Virus record (IMG/VR): IMGVR_UViG_3300020030_000065
Location: 1 to 6,075 of that record
DNA length: 6,075 bases
Strand: one strand, 5' to 3'
Source: a virus
Below are positions 1-6,075 of the stretch, piece after piece. The notes under the pieces were generated by a model. It worked only from the letters and a program-made list of their open reading frames with translations. It was not told the DNA's origin and made no database searches. Positions within the stretch are counted from its first letter, which is position 1. Each line of letters opens with the position of its first letter. A program made the translations under genes and the position numbers.

Positions 1-121
1 AATAGCCGATACAACTTATTAATATAAGATTTAATATCGACATCAGAAGAACTGTTACAGAGCCGAGTAAGGCACCGAGCATTATGTAATATAATTTCGT
101 CTTCATTGGTTAGGTGATGAT
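1..121. repeat. Terminal direct repeat, copy 1 (identical to 5955-6075); assembly overlap of a circular 5954-bp genome
   Basis: Base-by-base comparison shows 1-121 equals 5955-6075 with no mismatch, and the identity runs exactly to the window end. The offset is 5954. Confidence 0.95.
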
Positions 122-1325
122 TTAATGTAAGATACTGATAATAAGCACGAGTCACAGAAAGAATAGAATCGGAATCATAATCTATAATACCGAACCTTGC
201 CATTCTTTTCGGCGCGTCTGCAACAGCTCGAATAATTCTAGCAATCGCAACAGCATCGTCATAGCGAGCACTTGGGAATCGGGGCAATAAGGTACGGATA
301 TACGACATGGGGGGAGTTGATTTAACACTAATTCCATTGAAGTTATAGATTCGTCCATTAATGACAGAATCGATTTTTTGCTCGATCGCGTGATAAGGGT
401 CTTCATTCTGGTCGAAAACCTCACCCTTTTCAAAGAATCCAAGAGACGCTCTTTGCCTGGGTCTAAATGCGCGGCATGATCGATATAATAGGGGAGCAGA
501 ACTAAGGCTGTTAACGTAACTCGCAACGTACGAAGCAGCTCCACCGCGGGCAAGCTGGAAATCTGTACGACCGAGTTTCCAACTCTTATCGTGACACTGT
601 CGTAATACCTCTGAGACTTCTCTCGAGTTCGTGAATAATAAGATATGATAATGCGGGCGGAAATGGACTGGGGCATATTCACCCACAGCGTAGAAATGTA
701 GCGATTCATAAGTACCCAATTGTTGAAATAAATGTTTACGTAATCGTTTAATATAGTTCTGAACATCAACATAATTTAAGAATGGTATAAGGTTATTAAT
801 ACCATATTGTTCAGCAGCGGGATATACCGAATTGTCGACGGCCTGCGATTTATGGATAAAACTACGAATAGCATCCATACTAAGAAACCAATTGTCCTTA
901 GCAGGAACATATTTCTTAATTTCACGGTCATACGGCACCGTGCCTTGAACCTGCGTGAAGAATATATGACGCAATTGGGAAGAATCCTCAGGTTGATACT
1001 CAGAAACAGGGATATAAGAGTGGCATTCATAACCGAATACTTTATCTCCTGAAATGCTTAGAGTGTCTTCATAATCACTATGCAGAACCTCACAATTCAT
1101 CAGAGGGATATGTTCATTAGCATAAGTAAGCGTCACAAAATAAGAATACTTGAAAGCACTTCCAGCGGTCTTCACGCGCATGGACGCTTTTTTAGAACGC
1201 TTATGAATACAGTAATCACATTGACCGCAATCTACGGCAATACGTGCACCAGTGTAACGATTAGTTATGAAAGAACGATGCTGACAATGATCGACAGCTT
1301 TAAGCAAATCAGGAGTAAATTTCAT
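1..1325 (-). CDS. VP4: Replication initiation protein (Microviridae VP4, HUH rolling-circle endonuclease), N-terminal 441 codons. The ORF leaves the left edge and continues in frame at 5954 down to 5600, for 559 aa in total.
   Basis: Not in the ORF track because there is no in-window stop. Hand translation from the ATG at 1325-1323 gives MKFTPDLLKAVDHCQHRSFITNRYTGARIAVDCGQCDYCIHKRSK... with no stop down to position 1. It contains a Cys cluster CGQCDYC (1209-1229), motif I FVTLTY (1122-1139), HUH motif HYHILLF (633-653) and a Tyr motif YVASYV (513-530). The frame joins exactly to track ORF 5600-5968 (...KLYRLFLHVSK...). Confidence 0.92.
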   Translation of the reverse strand, partial: MKFTPDLLKAVDHCQHRSFITNRYTGARIAVDCGQCDYCIHKRSKKASMRVKTAGSAFKYSYFVTLTYANEHIPLMNCEVLHSDYEDTLSISGDKVFGYECHSYIPVSEYQPEDSSQLRHIFFTQVQGTVPYDREIKKYVPAKDNWFLSMDAIRSFIHKSQAVDNSVYPAAEQYGINNLIPFLNYVDVQNYIKRLRKHLFQQLGTYESLHFYAVGEYAPVHFRPHYHILLFTNSREVSEVLRQCHDKSWKLGRTDFQLARGGAASYVASYVNSLSSAPLLYRSCRAFRPRQRASLGFFEKGEVFDQNEDPYHAIEQKIDSVINGRIYNFNGISVKSTPPMSYIRTLLPRFPSARYDDAVAIARIIRAVADAPKRMARFGIIDYDSDSILSVTRAYYQYLTLNHHLTNEDEIILHNARCLTRLCNSSSDVDIKSYINKLYRL

Positions 1326-1327
1326 AA

Positions 1328-1636
1328 TTATTTACGTTTATCAATCACTTGGTAGCGATTACGCGGGCCAAATGAAATATGAATAAATGTAGGATAAATA
1401 ATAAGTTGATCAAAACGACACATATTATCAGCATAATTATGGATCATTTCAAGCAGCTTATTGAAACTAGTATTGCCATAAGGTTTAATGTCAATAGCCT
1501 CACCCGTCAAATGCTGAGAATTAGGAACACCATTACAAGCCTTATTCTGTTCCGGAGTACGTCTGGCACTCGTCACAGTGAAATGAACGTTAGAGAACAA
1601 CAGATACTCAAGAAAATGCATAAGAGAATAATTCAT
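1328..1636 (-). CDS. Zinc D-Ala-D-Ala carboxypeptidase-like peptidoglycan hydrolase (peptidase M15 / LAS superfamily); putative endolysin, 102 aa
   Basis: SQHLTGEAID (1490-1519) matches the M15 signature SxHxxGxAxD exactly. Upstream TSARRTPEQN resembles the SGYR(S/T)xxxN box, and a C-terminal His lies in FIHIS (His codon 1379-1381). There is no signal peptide or TM segment. The start overlaps the upstream ORF's stop (ATGA at 1633-1636), and the stop lies 2 nt before the Rep ATG. Confidence 0.8.
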   Translation of the reverse strand: MNYSLMHFLEYLLFSNVHFTVTSARRTPEQNKACNGVPNSQHLTGEAIDIKPYGNTSFNKLLEMIHNYADNMCRFDQLIIYPTFIHISFGPRNRYQVIDKRK

Positions 1637-1716
1637 AATCCAATAGCATTAAGAATATAACCAAGAGCAGCGGAAACAGCACCAATTACAATTTTCCAAA
1701 TATTATTACTTTTCAT
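1633..1716 (-). CDS. 27-aa single-pass membrane peptide MKSNNIWKIVIGAVSAALGYILNAIGL; holin-like lysis-accessory candidate
   Basis: This is the C-terminal part of track ORF 1633-1857, starting at the internal ATG 1716-1714. By my count 19 of 27 codons end in T, matching the bias in VP1. The T periodicity sits in this frame only downstream of the ORF64 stop. The peptide has a short polar N-terminus followed by a ~22-residue hydrophobic stretch. Its stop overlaps the peptidase start (ATGA). Confidence 0.55.
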   Translation of the reverse strand: MKSNNIWKIVIGAVSAALGYILNAIGL

Positions 1717-1900
1717 CGGCTTGAGTTTTAAGTTCAACAAAATTATTTTCTTCTTTAATCGAATCCACAACAACAATAAGACCCAGCGGAGAAACTCGCT
1801 CAGAATAGTTTCCAAGACCGTCAAGAGAATTGACGATATAAGGCGGTATAACATCACGACCAGTGGTTTTTTCTTTTAAGGAAATAATAAATTTCTGCAT
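1706..1900 (-). CDS. Hypothetical 64-aa soluble protein, the first gene after the non-coding region
   Basis: Track ORF with an ATG start. By my count 33 of 64 codons end in T, as in VP1, which supports this frame over the overlapping 74-aa frame. I recognise no family motif. Confidence 0.6.
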   Translation of the reverse strand: MQKFIISLKEKTTGRDVIPPYIVNSLDGLGNYSERVSPLGLIVVVDSIKEENNFVELKTQADEK

Positions 1901-1950
1901 AATTGTAAGATTTTAATATTAATAAACTAATGAGTTTGGTTTCTACGGAG

Positions 1951-1981
1951 CAAAGGAAAGTATAATTTTTGAATAAACAAA
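1951..1981 (-). promoter_or_regulatory. Candidate Bacteroidota-type promoter: TTTG (-33) then 19 nt then TTccTTTG (-7-like)
   Basis: The sense strand reads TTTG at 1981-1978 and TTCCTTTG at 1958-1951. The published Bacteroides consensus is TTTG-N19-21-TAnnTTTG, so there is one mismatch (T for A). It lies about 50 nt upstream of the ORF64 ATG, in the only sizeable AT-rich non-coding stretch. Confidence 0.25.
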
Positions 1982-2039
1982 ATATTTCGGAGTTTTTTTT
2001 TATTCTACGGTTAGGGTGTGAGTTGTGCGTTTATAGACA

Positions 2040-2288
2040 AGGGGGGGCCGAATTTGAGATGATAACTCAAATTTCCTCCGGACACAACTAGGGGCTTCGC
2101 TTGAATAACATAGGGGGTATAGGCACGGCAAGTCAAGTCTGTCTTGCCTTTGCGCACCTACGTGCTAAAATACCGGAGCGGAACGCTCCTCTAGGGAAGT
2201 CGCTCCGCTCCATTTTATACCAGGCCCTACGCGGGCGGCGGGTGTATATCGCTCCAGAGCCGCGATGGGCTCTTAGTCCTGAAGAATG
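2040..2288. other. G+C-rich, hairpin-dense non-coding element (structured RNA and/or ssDNA origin/terminator region)
   Basis: All three sense frames are closed. I hand-counted about 55% G+C over 2041-2280, against a visibly AT-rich genome. Hairpins: 2051-2058/2066-2073 (8 bp), 2127-2132/2143-2148 (6 bp), 2175-2180/2184-2189 (6 bp, GAA loop), 2224-2227/2233-2236 (4 bp), 2256-2261/2268-2273 (6 bp). Possible long-range pairs: 2044-2049/2223-2228 and 2076-2081/2173-2178. Homopolymers: G7 at 2041-2047 and G5 at 2114-2118. Confidence 0.6.
2051..2073. repeat. Perfect 8-bp inverted repeat with a 7-nt loop (aatttgag-atgataa-ctcaaatt)
   Basis: Read directly from the sequence. An AT-rich stem is flanked by G7CCG on one side and CCTCCGG on the other. 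On the sense strand the loop reads TTATCAT. Confidence 0.85.
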
Positions 2289-3392
2289 CTAGTAACCAAT
2301 ACCATTAGCACCATTATAAATAGTAGTGTTACGAGGGCCGTAATCATTACGGAAAATCTGAGCACCAGGACGCATAGCTCCAATTATATTACCAGCGCCT
2401 TGAAAAATACGAGATGCGTAATCTATAGCATTACGAAGGCCGTAAGAATCAAAATCCTTCTTAGCGTTACCGGCAGACCATCTGTAATAGTCCCGGATAG
2501 CTTTATCCTTAGAATATTGCATATTCTTACGGTTGTTTACATTTTTGTAATCCCATAGAGAATCGTAATATTGCGTATAGTAACCCATATTCGTAGCAGA
2601 TATTAGAGCATCAGCAGTGTCAGAAGCAATTTCATTAGAAATACGCTGACCTTGTGTCTGAGCAGCAATCTGGAGTGCACGCTGAATCTCAGTTTGGACC
2701 TGTTTTTCGGTTAAAGCACCTTGTTGAACAAGATTGTAGAGATACTGAGCTTTTGTAAGAAGATCCGCTTGCTGTTGGGCGTCCATATACTTATTTAATA
2801 TAGCCTGAGCATCAGCCTGTAGGTAAATATGCGATGTCTGAGCCGCAGTCAACTTACCAGCAGCAACAGCATTCTCAAGTTCCTGACGTTCTCTAGACTG
2901 GTCCAATTCAGCAGAAATACGACCAGTATTAGAATCCCAATAACCAGACTCACCAACACCAATATTCTTGTAATTAGTGTCTCCTATAATTTTTTTAGCT
3001 AAGAGGGGGGTAAGAGTCTCAACCTGATTAGACTCAGTAATAGCCTTCCGAGCCTGAGCAAATGTTGCCAATGCAGAATCAATACCAGATAAATCTACAT
3101 GGACACCTTGCATAGCAGGAGTAGAGGGAATAGTAGCCTGAGGAGAAGAACCAGGAGAAGCAGAAGCACCCGCACCAGTCGAACTAACAAATGGATTCAA
3201 ACCGCGGACAATCTGAGCAGCAGGAGAATTGTACTGATTCTGATAATCAACCATATACTTTTGCCATTGCCGAGACAACTGGGCTTCATTCTGGGCAGCT
3301 ACACGGTTCTGTGTAGCGATTAATTCATTTGTCGCATTCGCATTGGACTGCGACATAGAATTAATCATGCTACCCAATATTGAACCAATCAT
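2289..3392 (-). CDS. VP2: Minor capsid / DNA pilot protein VP2, 367 aa
   Basis: Track ORF. It lies downstream of the capsid gene. The N-terminal region QNRVAAQNEAQLSRQWQKYMVDYQNQYNSPAAQIVRGLNPF resembles the conserved Q/N-rich ...GLNP segment of microvirus pilot proteins. A G/A/S/P linker and Q-rich helical repeats follow. The start overlaps the upstream stop (ATGA at 3389-3392). Confidence 0.82.
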   Translation of the reverse strand: MIGSILGSMINSMSQSNANATNELIATQNRVAAQNEAQLSRQWQKYMVDYQNQYNSPAAQIVRGLNPFVSSTGAGASASPGSSPQATIPSTPAMQGVHVDLSGIDSALATFAQARKAITESNQVETLTPLLAKKIIGDTNYKNIGVGESGYWDSNTGRISAELDQSRERQELENAVAAGKLTAAQTSHIYLQADAQAILNKYMDAQQQADLLTKAQYLYNLVQQGALTEKQVQTEIQRALQIAAQTQGQRISNEIASDTADALISATNMGYYTQYYDSLWDYKNVNNRKNMQYSKDKAIRDYYRWSAGNAKKDFDSYGLRNAIDYASRIFQGAGNIIGAMRPGAQIFRNDYGPRNTTIYNGANGIGY

Positions 3393-3832
3393 TGAGCACT
3401 AGAGGCAGATGCGGGATCCGTAGACGGCGCTGCCTTATTCTCTGCCAGCATAGACTCAGCAATAGCGGATAATTCTGACTTCTCGCTAGCCAATTGCCGT
3501 AAAACAGCTTGTCTTTCAGACATCGTCTGACAATGCCGAGAAATGACACAGTCAAACCGTTCCTCATCTGTCATACTATCCATAGTAGTAGACTGAGTAG
3601 GATGCATTTGAGCTAAGATATTATTCACATTCATATCTCCAAGAAGACGACGATACTTCTCCTGGTTAAGGAGAATAGAAGTCATATCCATATACATATA
3701 CGAGCCGTCGGACAATTCCTCCAGCATAACCGAATCATATACACTAGCTTCATAACAGGGATTTCCCTCAATCAATTCAGGAGTAACACTATCCTGTTCA
3801 AACTCAGGATTTACATAAGCAAAATTTCTCAT
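3389..3832 (-). CDS. Acidic, Met-rich 147-aa protein between VP1 and VP2; internal scaffolding (VP3-like) candidate by position only
   Basis: The track ORF 3389-3844 begins at a TTG. The first ATG is at 3832-3830 (MRNFAYVNPEF...), 12 nt after the VP1 stop. The size and acidity fit a scaffold, but I do not see the conserved gokushovirus VP3 motifs. Confidence 0.55.
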   Translation of the reverse strand: MRNFAYVNPEFEQDSVTPELIEGNPCYEASVYDSVMLEELSDGSYMYMDMTSILLNQEKYRRLLGDMNVNNILAQMHPTQSTTMDSMTDEERFDCVISRHCQTMSERQAVLRQLASEKSELSAIAESMLAENKAAPSTDPASASSAQ

Positions 3833-3844
3833 AACGACACACAA

Positions 3845-5584
3845 TTAATAAGGTAAACCATTTCTATCCAAGTTCTGTACAGCATACACTTGGAAGTTAA
3901 CATTACATAATAACTGGTCATAAGCCACATTATAATTACTAGTAGTAATCTGCGGCTCAAATATAGAATTCAGCTGTTGAGGACGAATCTTAAATGACTG
4001 ATAACTCAATGAAGACTGACCAGAAACCTGAACCTGAGAACCTTGAAGCGGAGCAGCCCAAGACTGATAAGCAGCAGCAGGACGAAATGCACCATGAACC
4101 GTGTCAACAGCAGATTTCCACTGCCAATAGCGAAGATTATAACCAATATTGCCAGTAGGAGAGGACGGACTATTATTAAGCGCCAGAGAAGGAACAGGCT
4201 GCATACCTAACTGGTCGAATGCAGGTTGGGGGAAGTCAGAAACAGACGTACATAGCAACTGAGGATTATGACCTTTAAGCGACCAGTCGAGCAGAGGAAC
4301 AGCATGATAAACACACATAATTACCTGATGCTCAGCACCACAATCATAATTAATAACATGACCAGACTTAGAGTCAACACCTTTACCAGCGATAACAGCT
4401 TGAGAGTTATCAGCAGTCAAGTTAGTATTCAAAACCTCATTAATATTGATAACATTAGACCAACCTCCAATATAGTGGGCATGGTTACCCATGTATTCAG
4501 GGGCTTTAATGCCAAACTGAGCAGCCATCTGGTCTGAATAATCCTTACTACTAAATTGTACTACTTCTTTCCAGCGCTGTAAGTATTCAGTTGCACGGAT
4601 TGAGAGAGCGGATAGGTCAGAGTTAACCTGTAAACCACGAATAGAAGTATAAGCGCTAGAAGTAACAACATTTGTAGTATTAGCAGGATTGTTAACAGCA
4701 GAATTAGTACCACCAATAACACCAGAAGAAGCAATCACGCGGGAAGAAGGCTCAGACGACATTTGAGAAGAAGGCAGAACAGCTACCGAGCCATACTGAG
4801 AAGCGGGAAGCACGCCGAGGAAATAATCCTTAGGATAGTTCGCATAGCGCAACTTAATCATATCGGCAGAAATCTCAACAGAACTCCCGCCGTCCCAATA
4901 ATCGACATTATAAGAATAAGCCAAATGTTTTTCCCACTGAGAATTGGAGAAGAAATCGAAGTAGATTTTCTGATAGGCAAAAATAGGAAGAAGGTTCAAA
5001 TTAATAGAAGTACCGTAAATAAGTGGATTCTGAGAATCCGACAACGAAGTGGTATCAAGACCAAGATACTGCATGGTAATATCTTTCTTTTTAGCATTTC
5101 CAGTACCAATAAATGAACCATAACCAAGCATATCCAATAGCTTACAAGAGCCGTAGGCGAAGCCAAAACCAGCGTCATCAACAGTATTAGCAGTTACACG
5201 AGCCTGGATTTCAGCAGATATATTACCAACCGGAGCATAGGGAACACTAGATAACTGTGATGTATTAGCAGAATTAGAAGCAGCAGAAGTCATATAGTCC
5301 GACATCTGGGTAAATGCCTGTGGGAGCGCACGAGAAATCAGTCGTAACGGCACAGCGTAGAAGTCATAATATTCCTTGATACGCGTATAAGCAGCCGTAT
5401 TCACGGGGACAGTACGGGTAAACCAGTCAGAAGAAATACGATACTTAGTACCAGGAATGGCAATCTGCCAATAGCACGGAAGAATTTCTCCGATTTTTGC
5501 CGTAAACAATTTTTTACTAGACAAATCAAAGGAAGAGCGATGTACGGCAACTCTCGCTCGGTCTAGTGGGTTAAAATCACTCAT
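3845..5584 (-). CDS. VP1: Major capsid protein VP1 (Microviridae F-like jelly-roll capsid), 579 aa
   Basis: Track ORF. The N-terminus ...VHRSSFDLSSKKLFTAKIGEILPCYWQIAIPGTKYRIS matches the hallmark microvirus capsid start (H/QRS.FDLS....T...G.L.P.....LPG). The C-terminus ...NFQVYAVQNLDRNGLPY is typical. An S/T/N-rich insertion spans aa 271-323. Confidence 0.97.
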   Translation of the reverse strand: MSDFNPLDRARVAVHRSSFDLSSKKLFTAKIGEILPCYWQIAIPGTKYRISSDWFTRTVPVNTAAYTRIKEYYDFYAVPLRLISRALPQAFTQMSDYMTSAASNSANTSQLSSVPYAPVGNISAEIQARVTANTVDDAGFGFAYGSCKLLDMLGYGSFIGTGNAKKKDITMQYLGLDTTSLSDSQNPLIYGTSINLNLLPIFAYQKIYFDFFSNSQWEKHLAYSYNVDYWDGGSSVEISADMIKLRYANYPKDYFLGVLPASQYGSVAVLPSSQMSSEPSSRVIASSGVIGGTNSAVNNPANTTNVVTSSAYTSIRGLQVNSDLSALSIRATEYLQRWKEVVQFSSKDYSDQMAAQFGIKAPEYMGNHAHYIGGWSNVININEVLNTNLTADNSQAVIAGKGVDSKSGHVINYDCGAEHQVIMCVYHAVPLLDWSLKGHNPQLLCTSVSDFPQPAFDQLGMQPVPSLALNNSPSSPTGNIGYNLRYWQWKSAVDTVHGAFRPAAAYQSWAAPLQGSQVQVSGQSSLSYQSFKIRPQQLNSIFEPQITTSNYNVAYDQLLCNVNFQVYAVQNLDRNGLPY

Positions 5585-5599
5585 AATTAATAATTTAAA

Positions 5600-6075
5600 T
5601 TAGACCATACGGTTAAATATATTATTAGCATCATTAAGCTTCTTATGCTTAATCATATCACGACAGAATGTTGCACTACGGAACCTGAGTTGGTCAAGGA
5701 TCTGAATTGTTTCACGTGAAATATTCGACAAGACATCAATCTCTTGCCCGTTCTGAGGCAACGCAAACATACAATCTGAGATTTCAGGGTATTGGGCACG
5801 GATGTTATATGCATCTCGTAGACTTTCATAATTTTTTTTCGTCTCATATTCTATTCCAGTTTTGACGATAAACATAATACGATTGGCATAAGGATCAAGA
5901 TTATCACCGATGGAAGGCAGATGCCAATTCCTAAGAAACTTACTGACATGAAGGAATAGCCGATACAACTTATTAATATAAGATTTAATATCGACATCAG
6001 AAGAACTGTTACAGAGCCGAGTAAGGCACCGAGCATTATGTAATATAATTTCGTCTTCATTGGTTAGGTGATGAT
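5600..6075 (-). CDS. VP4: Replication initiation protein VP4, C-terminal portion (stop at 5600-5602). 5955-6075 duplicates 1-121, so the unique part is 5600-5954.
   Basis: Track ORF 5600-5968 starts only at an internal TTG. The frame stays open to the window end and is in phase with the 1-1325 segment across the 5954-bp circle: 1325 + 355 = 1680 nt, which is 559 codons plus a stop. Confidence 0.9.
   Translation of the reverse strand, partial: HHLTNEDEIILHNARCLTRLCNSSSDVDIKSYINKLYRLFLHVSKFLRNWHLPSIGDNLDPYANRIMFIVKTGIEYETKKNYESLRDAYNIRAQYPEISDCMFALPQNGQEIDVLSNISRETIQILDQLRFRSATFCRDMIKHKKLNDANNIFNRMV
5955..6075. repeat. Terminal direct repeat, copy 2 (identical to 1-121)
   Basis: Same comparison as for copy 1. 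Confidence 0.95.

Follow-up and report, generated by a model that had tools for sequence, protein, structure and literature searches.

A conserved 27-residue predicted membrane peptide encoded against the M15 peptidase gene of gut microviruses, a candidate lysis factor

M15_3-type peptidases were reported by Roux et al. in 2012 in 11 human-associated gut microviruses of the Alpavirinae and Gokushovirinae, with a proposed endolysin role and, in five of the 11 cases, an adjacent open reading frame (ORF) designated 'unknown' (PMC3394797). Kirchberger et al. in 2022 treated peptidases as lysis-associated accessory genes of microviruses and explicitly left out overprinted genes (PMC9239249). M15_3-type peptidases are also found in marine and Rhizobium-type microviruses (PMC11499846), and the peptidoglycan hydrolase of microvirus Ebor is active in zymograms (PMC11980548). 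Among the small lysis proteins, LysM consists of 37 residues and inhibits MurJ (PMC12506998), and for single-stranded RNA (ssRNA) phages there are reports of functional lysis genes as small as about 25 codons, with one shorter still (PMC7693330). The locus analyzed here lies in a 6,075-nucleotide stretch of viral DNA (IMG/VR record IMGVR_UViG_3300020030_000065, positions 1 to 6,075; hereafter the window), which represents a complete circular gut microvirus genome; the circle measures 5,954 nt, and 121 nt are duplicated at the two ends (positions 1–121 are identical to 5955–6075). Its subject is a 27-codon gene, here called TM27, for a predicted single-helix membrane peptide, the end of which overlaps the start of a gene for a 102-residue M15 peptidase.

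An earlier annotation of this DNA, made from the letters alone (the original prediction), had read the two genes as a miniature holin–endolysin pair. The 27- and 102-residue ORFs, the SQHLTGEAID segment, and the ATGA overlap are present as it described, when its coordinates are read on the minus strand. The classical paradigm that it cited, of microviruses lysing their hosts without a muralytic enzyme, is outdated (PMC3394797, PMC9239249, PMC11980548), and its statement that M15 peptidases occur in metagenomic microviruses agrees with what was published in 2012. The small transmembrane (TM) partner that it pointed out proved to be conserved and is unannotated in the relatives examined, whereas its identity as a holin found no family match.

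A constrained gene directly upstream of the peptidase gene

The conservation of TM27 was evaluated in 53 relatives fetched through the peptidase alone, TM27 being no part of the selection; conservation figures are to be taken from this set, as contigs selected with a DNA pattern fix much of the TM27 core. In every evaluable locus of the set, TM27 is intact and located directly upstream of the peptidase gene, as the original prediction requires of related genomes, and two further loci are cut at a contig end. The TM27 frame of locus L017 is open with Val-Val replacing the usual start Met, and a small duplication in locus L030 leaves 32 nt between the TM27 stop and the start of the peptidase. 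The core IGAxSAALGY does not vary across the set, and the entropies at codon positions 1, 2, and 3 are 0.26, 0.015, and 0.75, respectively. The ratio of nonsynonymous to synonymous substitution rates (dN/dS; Nei–Gojobori, pooled pairwise estimates on related sequences, not tree-based) is 0.087 in the frame of TM27 versus 0.96 and 7.1 in the other two frames, and is lower than those of the peptidase (0.17) and of the preceding gene, ORF64 (0.27). The third codon positions of TM27 are 68% T, the same habit as in the real genes of this genome. TM27 is a real gene, far beyond chance, and is under strong purifying selection.

TM27 is annotated in none of the GenBank relatives examined. In the records of Dulem viruses 238, 226, and 243 (L004, L005, and L006:838-1212), the peptidase is annotated as a 124-residue protein from an upstream ATG, and the 21 extra residues (in Dulem virus 238, MENHHWCCLCCPRLCLKFSWA) are an off-frame, Trp/Cys-rich reading of the TM27 gene; this is probably a mis-annotation that hides TM27. 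None of the papers covered by the literature search describes the TM27–peptidase pair.

The protein encoded behind TM27 is, as judged from its profile match, its ligands, and a fold model, a bona fide M15_3/LAS zinc peptidase, in line with the original prediction. It scores 36.8 bits with Pfam PF08291 (Peptidase_M15_3), above the gathering threshold of 23.2 (E, 4.6e-9; profile positions 43–107 of 108), and matches the PHROG family phrog_894, 'endolysin', with an E of 3e-16. The SQHLTGEAID segment occupies residues 40–49, in which H42 and D49 are assigned as zinc ligands by the M15 motif (SxHxxGxAxD) together with the downstream H86; R26, H42, D49, D76, and H86 do not vary among 20 aligned sequences with identities as low as 38%. 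As a candidate for the catalytic base, the residue three positions before H86 is variable, in contrast to D130 of the T5 endolysin. Because a sequence search of the PDB gave only a weak match (T5 L-Ala-D-Glu peptidase; E, 0.23), a fold search was needed. The AlphaFold2 model of the peptidase has a predicted local distance difference test score (pLDDT) of 94.3, and Foldseek placed Streptomyces Zn DD-peptidase (PDB ID: 1lbu) at the top of its PDB matches (probability, 1.00; TM-score, 0.59), with a modest best E of 2e-3, followed by the Sonic hedgehog N-domain, VanY, LdcB, the RB49 L-Ala-D-Glu peptidase, and LysB4.

The N-terminal 30 residues of the peptidase contain no export signal (maximal 19-residue Kyte–Doolittle mean, 0.85), and the N-terminal helix of residues 3–14 forms part of the modeled LAS fold (pLDDT, 94–97), which bears out the signal-less enzyme of the original prediction. 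With neither a signal nor an anchor, the enzyme should stay in the cytoplasm unless the membrane is opened. A protein search with the peptidase returned 1,727 clusters at E ≤ 0.001, the best-scoring of which are mostly on contigs of about 6 kb, and the GenBank relatives (Dulem viruses and OP549867) already carry a 'peptidase' annotation. The microvirus peptidase itself is not new; the new part is the peptide.

A diverged peptide occupies the same position in a distant clade. A 29-residue peptide (TM29; MKSETKSKIWSAIIAAAVSLLTSIAQIFS) is encoded directly before the peptidase by bajarodmic virus 410 and by Dulem viruses 236 and 257. The peptidases of these three viruses are 50–58% identical to that of the window, and the capsid of Dulem virus 257 is only 36% identical to the window's. 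A DNA-pattern scan located TM29 in 43 viral contigs, in all 43 of which the peptidase lies behind it. The dN/dS of TM29 is 0.034 versus 0.21 for its peptidase, and the mean pairwise identities are 97% and 75%, respectively.

A peptidase start is present at 56 loci of the relatives, and the ATGA overlap is found at 54 of them, missing only from L030 and the distant L059. In the TM29 clade, the junction consists of the stop, 3 nt, and ATG in most contigs, and of a spacer of 9, 16, 21, 32, or 56 nt in several. The closeness of peptide and peptidase is conserved, but the specific frame relation is not. The tight junction of the original prediction thereby holds in both clades and may permit translational coupling; the fixed stoichiometry also read from it is unsupported, as the TM29-clade spacer ranges from 3 to 56 nt.

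Such a junction raises the question of whether the peptide and the peptidase could be made as one protein through frameshifting or stop read-through, which would amount to a signal-anchor-release (SAR)-type endolysin. The two genes of the TM29 clade are usually in the same frame, one stop and one codon apart, and the weak hydrophobicity of the TM27 helix and its abundance of Gly, Ala, and Ser are reminiscent of SAR domains. In the window clade, however, a fusion needs a -1 shift within the last four codons, where there is no slippery heptamer (GCT ATT GGA TTA TGA), and many relatives have a stop in the peptidase frame a few codons upstream of the peptidase. The stop in the TM29 clade is usually TAA, and its longer spacers often contain extra stops. 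The fusion protein, which we consider highly improbable, was rejected on the lack of a slippery site, the variable spacers and frames, and the dN/dS of 7.1 that the TM27 region shows when read in the peptidase frame.

Asymmetric co-occurrence and the proposed role of TM27

A DNA-pattern scan for the TM27 core retrieved at least 80 whole contigs. Among the 80 matches listed, the peptidase lies directly downstream of TM27 in 72 contigs and, in one more, downstream across the linearization point of the contig. The remaining seven contigs of those listed have no peptidase anywhere, as searched by motif and tblastn; their order is ORF64, TM27, a 45-nt spacer, and the replication gene (Rep), and every other gene is present. 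The dN/dS of TM27 in these seven genomes is 0.10. They share a common junction sequence, and in six of the seven the peptide ends with Val and, likewise in six, has Ser in place of N23 (...ILSAIGV). On the Rep tree they are scattered, with well-supported branches forcing at least three changes. The common junction and ending of genomes so scattered suggest that the peptidase-less module allele may move by recombination. Conversely, no evaluable genome was found to have the peptidase without the peptide among well over 100 genomes from the two clades. With seven genomes carrying the peptide only and no evaluable one carrying the peptidase only, the dependence appears from sequence to be one-way: the enzyme needs the peptide, but the peptide does not need the enzyme.

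Other lineages of microviruses with an M15 peptidase are mixed in this respect, with possible counterparts of the peptide in some. Microvirus mar43 has a 35-residue TM ORF (L184:340-447) upstream of a longer M15 peptidase, and Peromfec virus RodF8_10 has an annotated 29-residue TM ORF (L180:1017-1106; MKSKFISVLLKTVSYFLTALAGAFSTTLI) directly downstream of a longer M15 peptidase. Bajarodmic viruses 766 and 151, which have an M15 peptidase, show no clear tiny TM ORF beside the enzyme.

TM27 contains K2 and K8, its only charges, followed by a predicted 19-residue helix that reaches the last residue (...LNAIGL-stop). The original prediction called this helix strong; its hydrophobicity is instead moderate, with many Gly, Ala, and Ser residues and a 19-residue Kyte–Doolittle mean of 2.0. 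By an approximate estimate on a Hessa-type scale, its insertion energy is about +1.6 kcal/mol versus about -3.4 kcal/mol for the helix of phiX174 E, a marginal hydrophobicity near that of the pore-forming 29-residue toxin TisB on the same scale. In a helical wheel, G12, S15, A16, G19, N23, and G26 fall in a 100-degree arc and make up a continuous small/polar stripe, and the remainder of the helix consists of Ile, Val, Leu, and Tyr. In TM29, Ser and Ala residues spaced at i+4 (S11, A15, S19, and S23) form a stripe of a similar kind. Such helices typically pack on other helices, either their own copies or a target protein; TM27 may thus pack against itself or a target.

We tentatively propose, with slightly more doubt than confidence, that TM27 is the primary membrane-acting lysis factor of these phages and that the signal-less peptidase is an optional endolysin depending on it. 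TM27 would be made late and would be inserted into the cytoplasmic membrane with its N-terminus, bearing the two lysines, inside and its C-terminus outside. It would then self-associate via the conserved small/polar face of G12 to G26, and the membrane would be damaged when enough peptide has accumulated. The peptidase, being devoid of an export signal, would accumulate folded in the cytoplasm, would reach and cut the peptide stems of the wall only through the damage caused by TM27, and would thereby speed or complete lysis. This proposal would explain why the peptidase is never found without the peptide and why the peptide persists without the peptidase, and we regard it as the reading that best accommodates the one-way dependence, an enzyme without a signal, and the tightness of the junction.

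Several points weigh against the proposal. TM27 has no Pfam match, its sole PHROG match is a function-less family at an E of 0.47, and no holin family was found for it. A charged C-terminal cytoplasmic tail is usual in holins, but TM27 ends at the end of its helix without a charged hydrophilic tail. Lesions formed by a single helix of 27 residues may not be large enough for a folded enzyme of 12 kDa. In Escherichia coli, a holin without an endolysin kills the cell but does not lyse it; the seven peptidase-less genomes therefore fit a single-gene lysis (Sgl) protein at least as well. Furthermore, sister lineages without a peptidase, whose capsids are 31–38% identical to the window's, encode in or beside the slot upstream of Rep a protein of about 65 residues that combines a hydrophobic N-terminal helix, a Cys in lipobox-like surroundings (VQAC, AQSC, VQSC, or VTNC), and a tail rich in Ser, Thr, and Asn. 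This protein is possibly a small lipoprotein and, as far as its sequence indicates, resembles small phage lipoproteins more than holins. Because this different protein is found there, the slot may serve another membrane function. The small non-essential membrane protein K of phiX174 also sits by Rep among non-structural genes. Finally, it is possible that an overprinted lysis gene is located elsewhere in the genome.

The holin–endolysin analogy of the original prediction holds to the extent that a peptide is encoded beside a signal-less peptidase, and is weakened by the seven relatives with the peptide only, the missing holin family, and the missing charged tail. By a loose usage, in which a holin is a small predicted membrane protein encoded beside a candidate endolysin gene, TM27 is included. 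Nevertheless, we call it holin-like with respect to the action proposed for it, and do not assign it to a holin family, because of the lack of a family match, the lack of a charged C-terminal tail, and its persistence without the endolysin.

The peptidase-less genomes bear directly on the main alternative, namely that TM27 is itself an Sgl protein, a 'protein antibiotic' that blocks a membrane enzyme of lipid II synthesis and transport (for example, MraY or MurJ) and makes growing cells burst, with the peptidase as a later add-on that acts once the envelope starts failing. TM27 is under selection in all seven without a muralytic enzyme, which this alternative explains more naturally. Where the lysis mechanism of a small phage is known, it relies on an Sgl protein, as with phiX174 E, Qbeta A2, and LysM (preprint 10.1101/2023.10.16.562596), and known ones are as short as 37 residues (PMC12506998) and about 25 codons (PMC7693330). 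The conserved small-residue face of TM27 would suit binding to a target helix equally well. We nonetheless consider an Sgl function unlikely. The Sgl genes of ssRNA phages are fast-evolving and poorly conserved (PMC7693330), whereas few genes in the genomes studied here are as conserved as TM27 and TM29; moreover, the constant tight placement of the signal-less peptidase against the peptide would be left unexplained, and no target can be named.

The content of the slot upstream of Rep also suggests membrane roles other than lysis. TM27 could be a helper of burst size or assembly like phiX174 K, act in superinfection exclusion, or anchor replication or assembly, in which case the adjacency of the peptidase would result from genome compaction in a variable accessory slot. 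Such a role is compatible with the independence of TM27 from the peptidase in the seven genomes, its location among non-structural genes adjoining Rep, the lipoprotein-like protein in the same slot of sister lineages, and the tight packing or overlap of all genes in the window. It is quite unlikely, however, as it does not account for the absence of a peptidase without the peptide from well over 100 genomes in two clades. A cytoplasmic wall peptidase needs a partner that breaches the membrane, and no conserved membrane protein other than TM27 has a coding space of its own; the very strong purifying selection on TM27 also argues for an essential rather than an accessory role.

In the mammalian gut, microviruses rank with the most abundant phages, and we know of no explanation for lysis by those outside the phiX174 group. 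Their known peptidase has no way out of the cytoplasm, and TM27 is a concrete candidate for providing one that can be directly synthesized; judging from sequence and gene context, it is the best current candidate for the opening of the host by these phages. If TM27 works in this manner, a very small membrane-active peptide joins the known lysis proteins, the annotation is corrected in well over a hundred public genomes, including peptidases extended across the peptide gene, and length cut-offs of gene callers are shown to hide an essential phage function. A bolder version, which we regard as somewhat unlikely, would make TM27 and TM29 the long-missing effector with which a large group of mammalian-gut microviruses lyse their hosts and, among phage lysis proteins having a gene to themselves, the shortest known, sufficient alone and also releasing a folded endolysin. 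If true, it would define a new class, the 'peptide holin', bridging single-gene and holin–endolysin lysis.

Genome layout and neighboring genes

Every gene in the window is on the minus strand, and ORF64, TM27, the peptidase, and Rep form a compact run between the pilot gene and the replication gene (Table 1). As Rep spans the circle junction, it appears truncated in a linear ORF list. An Rfam scan of the whole window gave nothing relevant, and no Rfam match at E ≤ 1 was found in the non-coding region. In GenBank, the window is closest to microviruses from the faeces of lemurs, dogs, and humans, namely the Dulem viruses, MG945488, and OP549867. The phage may be called 'Alpavirinae-like', a label derived only from its habitat and the report of Roux et al.

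Table 1. Coordinates of the features in the window and of the slot protein in sister lineages
Feature	Position	Strand	Remarks
VP1 capsid	5584..3845	-	Pfam Phage_F
151-aa ORF	3844..3389	-	same position as the annotated 'internal scaffolding protein' of relatives
VP2 pilot	3392..2289	-	
Non-coding region	1901-2288		~390 nt; sole sizeable one; G+C above the rest of the genome
ORF64	1900..1706	-	first gene of the ORF64–TM27–peptidase–Rep run
TM27	1716..1633	-	27 codons; predicted single-helix membrane peptide MKSNNIWKIVIGAVSAALGYILNAIGL; ATG at 1716, TGA 1635-1633
M15_3/LAS zinc peptidase	1636..1328	-	102 aa; candidate endolysin without signal peptide
ATGA overlap	1636-1633	-	TM27 stop and peptidase start
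Rep	1325..1, crosses circle junction	-	559 aa
69-aa overprinted ORF	5851-6060	-	strongly hydrophobic, two helices; +1 frame of Rep; then a 64-aa ORF, 5653-5847
~65-aa protein of sister lineages	L188:4176-4373, L189:4658-4849, L191:4379-4582, L192:4530-4733		Dulem viruses 245, 263, 232; chicken microvirus mg8_48

ORF64, the last 11 nt of which overlap the start of TM27, encodes a conserved small acidic soluble protein. Its junction with TM27 (...DEK-stop/ATG) is retained even in the distant TM29 clade, and it is present in relatives both with and without the peptidase. The AlphaFold2 model of the protein has a beta-beta-alpha-beta arrangement with a core pLDDT above 90. It has no Pfam or PHROG match and no significant fold match in the PDB, and its significant matches in BFVD are only uncharacterized microvirus proteins. 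ORF64 could be part of the TM27–peptidase module.

The overprinted +1 frame of Rep was considered as a source of a lysis gene in place of TM27. A hydrophobic ORF of at least 40 residues, comparable to that in Table 1, is open in the same Rep region in 75 of 75 relatives. However, this frame is poor in stops (15 versus 73 in the +2 frame of Rep), and it is stop-poor and hydrophobic genome-wide owing to the T-rich third codon positions. The synonymous diversity of Rep at the overprinted ORF is 0.21, within the range of 0.15–0.36 of the other 30-codon windows. With a stop-poor frame and no clear synonymous drop, the ORF was treated as a probable by-product of composition.

A Logan contig of 24.7 kb (SRR29466483_3102) contains a 2.35-kb microvirus segment (L177:9878-12226) with about 92% nucleotide identity to the window over its main 1,759-nt stretch. 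The segment covers the end of ORF64, TM27, the peptidase, Rep, and the start of VP1, and is embedded among genes like those of double-stranded DNA phages (D5_N primase, dUTPase, and Bro-N); it is either an assembly chimera or a real recombinant. In the search for a host, the TM27 DNA pattern was absent from about 185,000 species-representative bacterial genomes. A peptidase search of bacterial genomes found only relatives of 36% identity in two Flavobacteriales-type metagenome-assembled genomes (one labelled Flavobacteriales and one Vicingus), and no small TM ORF was seen beside the peptidase in the one such locus inspected (L175).

Comparison with known lysis systems

The closest described enzymes are the peptidases of gut Microviridae (PMC3394797, PMC9239249), which, like that of the window, belong to PF08291, occur in the same kind of phage and the same habitat, and are encoded beside Rep; unlike here, a small membrane-peptide partner is not mentioned in these papers. 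Among tailed phages, the gene order of Bacteroides phage BS-TP3 is similar in that gp14, a holin family protein, directly precedes gp15, a signal-less M15 endolysin of phrog_894. BS-TP3 gp15 is 41% identical to the window peptidase over residues 20–98 and is the closest tailed-phage homologue with a known Bacteroidota host; its location after a holin gene supports, by context, the reading of the window enzyme as an endolysin. The two putative membrane partners differ, however: the BS-TP3 holin has 158 residues, whereas TM27 has 27, forms a single predicted helix that lacks a soluble tail, and is retained in the seven genomes that have no such enzyme.

With Sgl proteins such as phiX174 E, which inhibits MraY, LysM, and those of ssRNA phages (PMC7693330, PMC10229422), which are the lysis systems of small-genome phages, TM27 has in common the tiny size and the single (in TM27, predicted) TM segment, its length being within their range, and it stands alone in some genomes. 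In contrast, the genes for E and most Sgl proteins lie within other genes and change rapidly, whereas TM27 occupies coding space of its own and shows extreme conservation; the Sgl systems also lack a muralytic enzyme, with which TM27 is usually paired. Microvirus Ebor, of the proposed 'Tainavirinae', resembles the window in combining a wall hydrolase (Gp7) with a predicted membrane protein of 45 residues (Gp1) in a microvirus (PMC11980548). Compared by description only, it differs in that gp1 and gp7 are apparently not neighbors, no lysis role is proposed for Gp1, and its host is an alphaproteobacterium.

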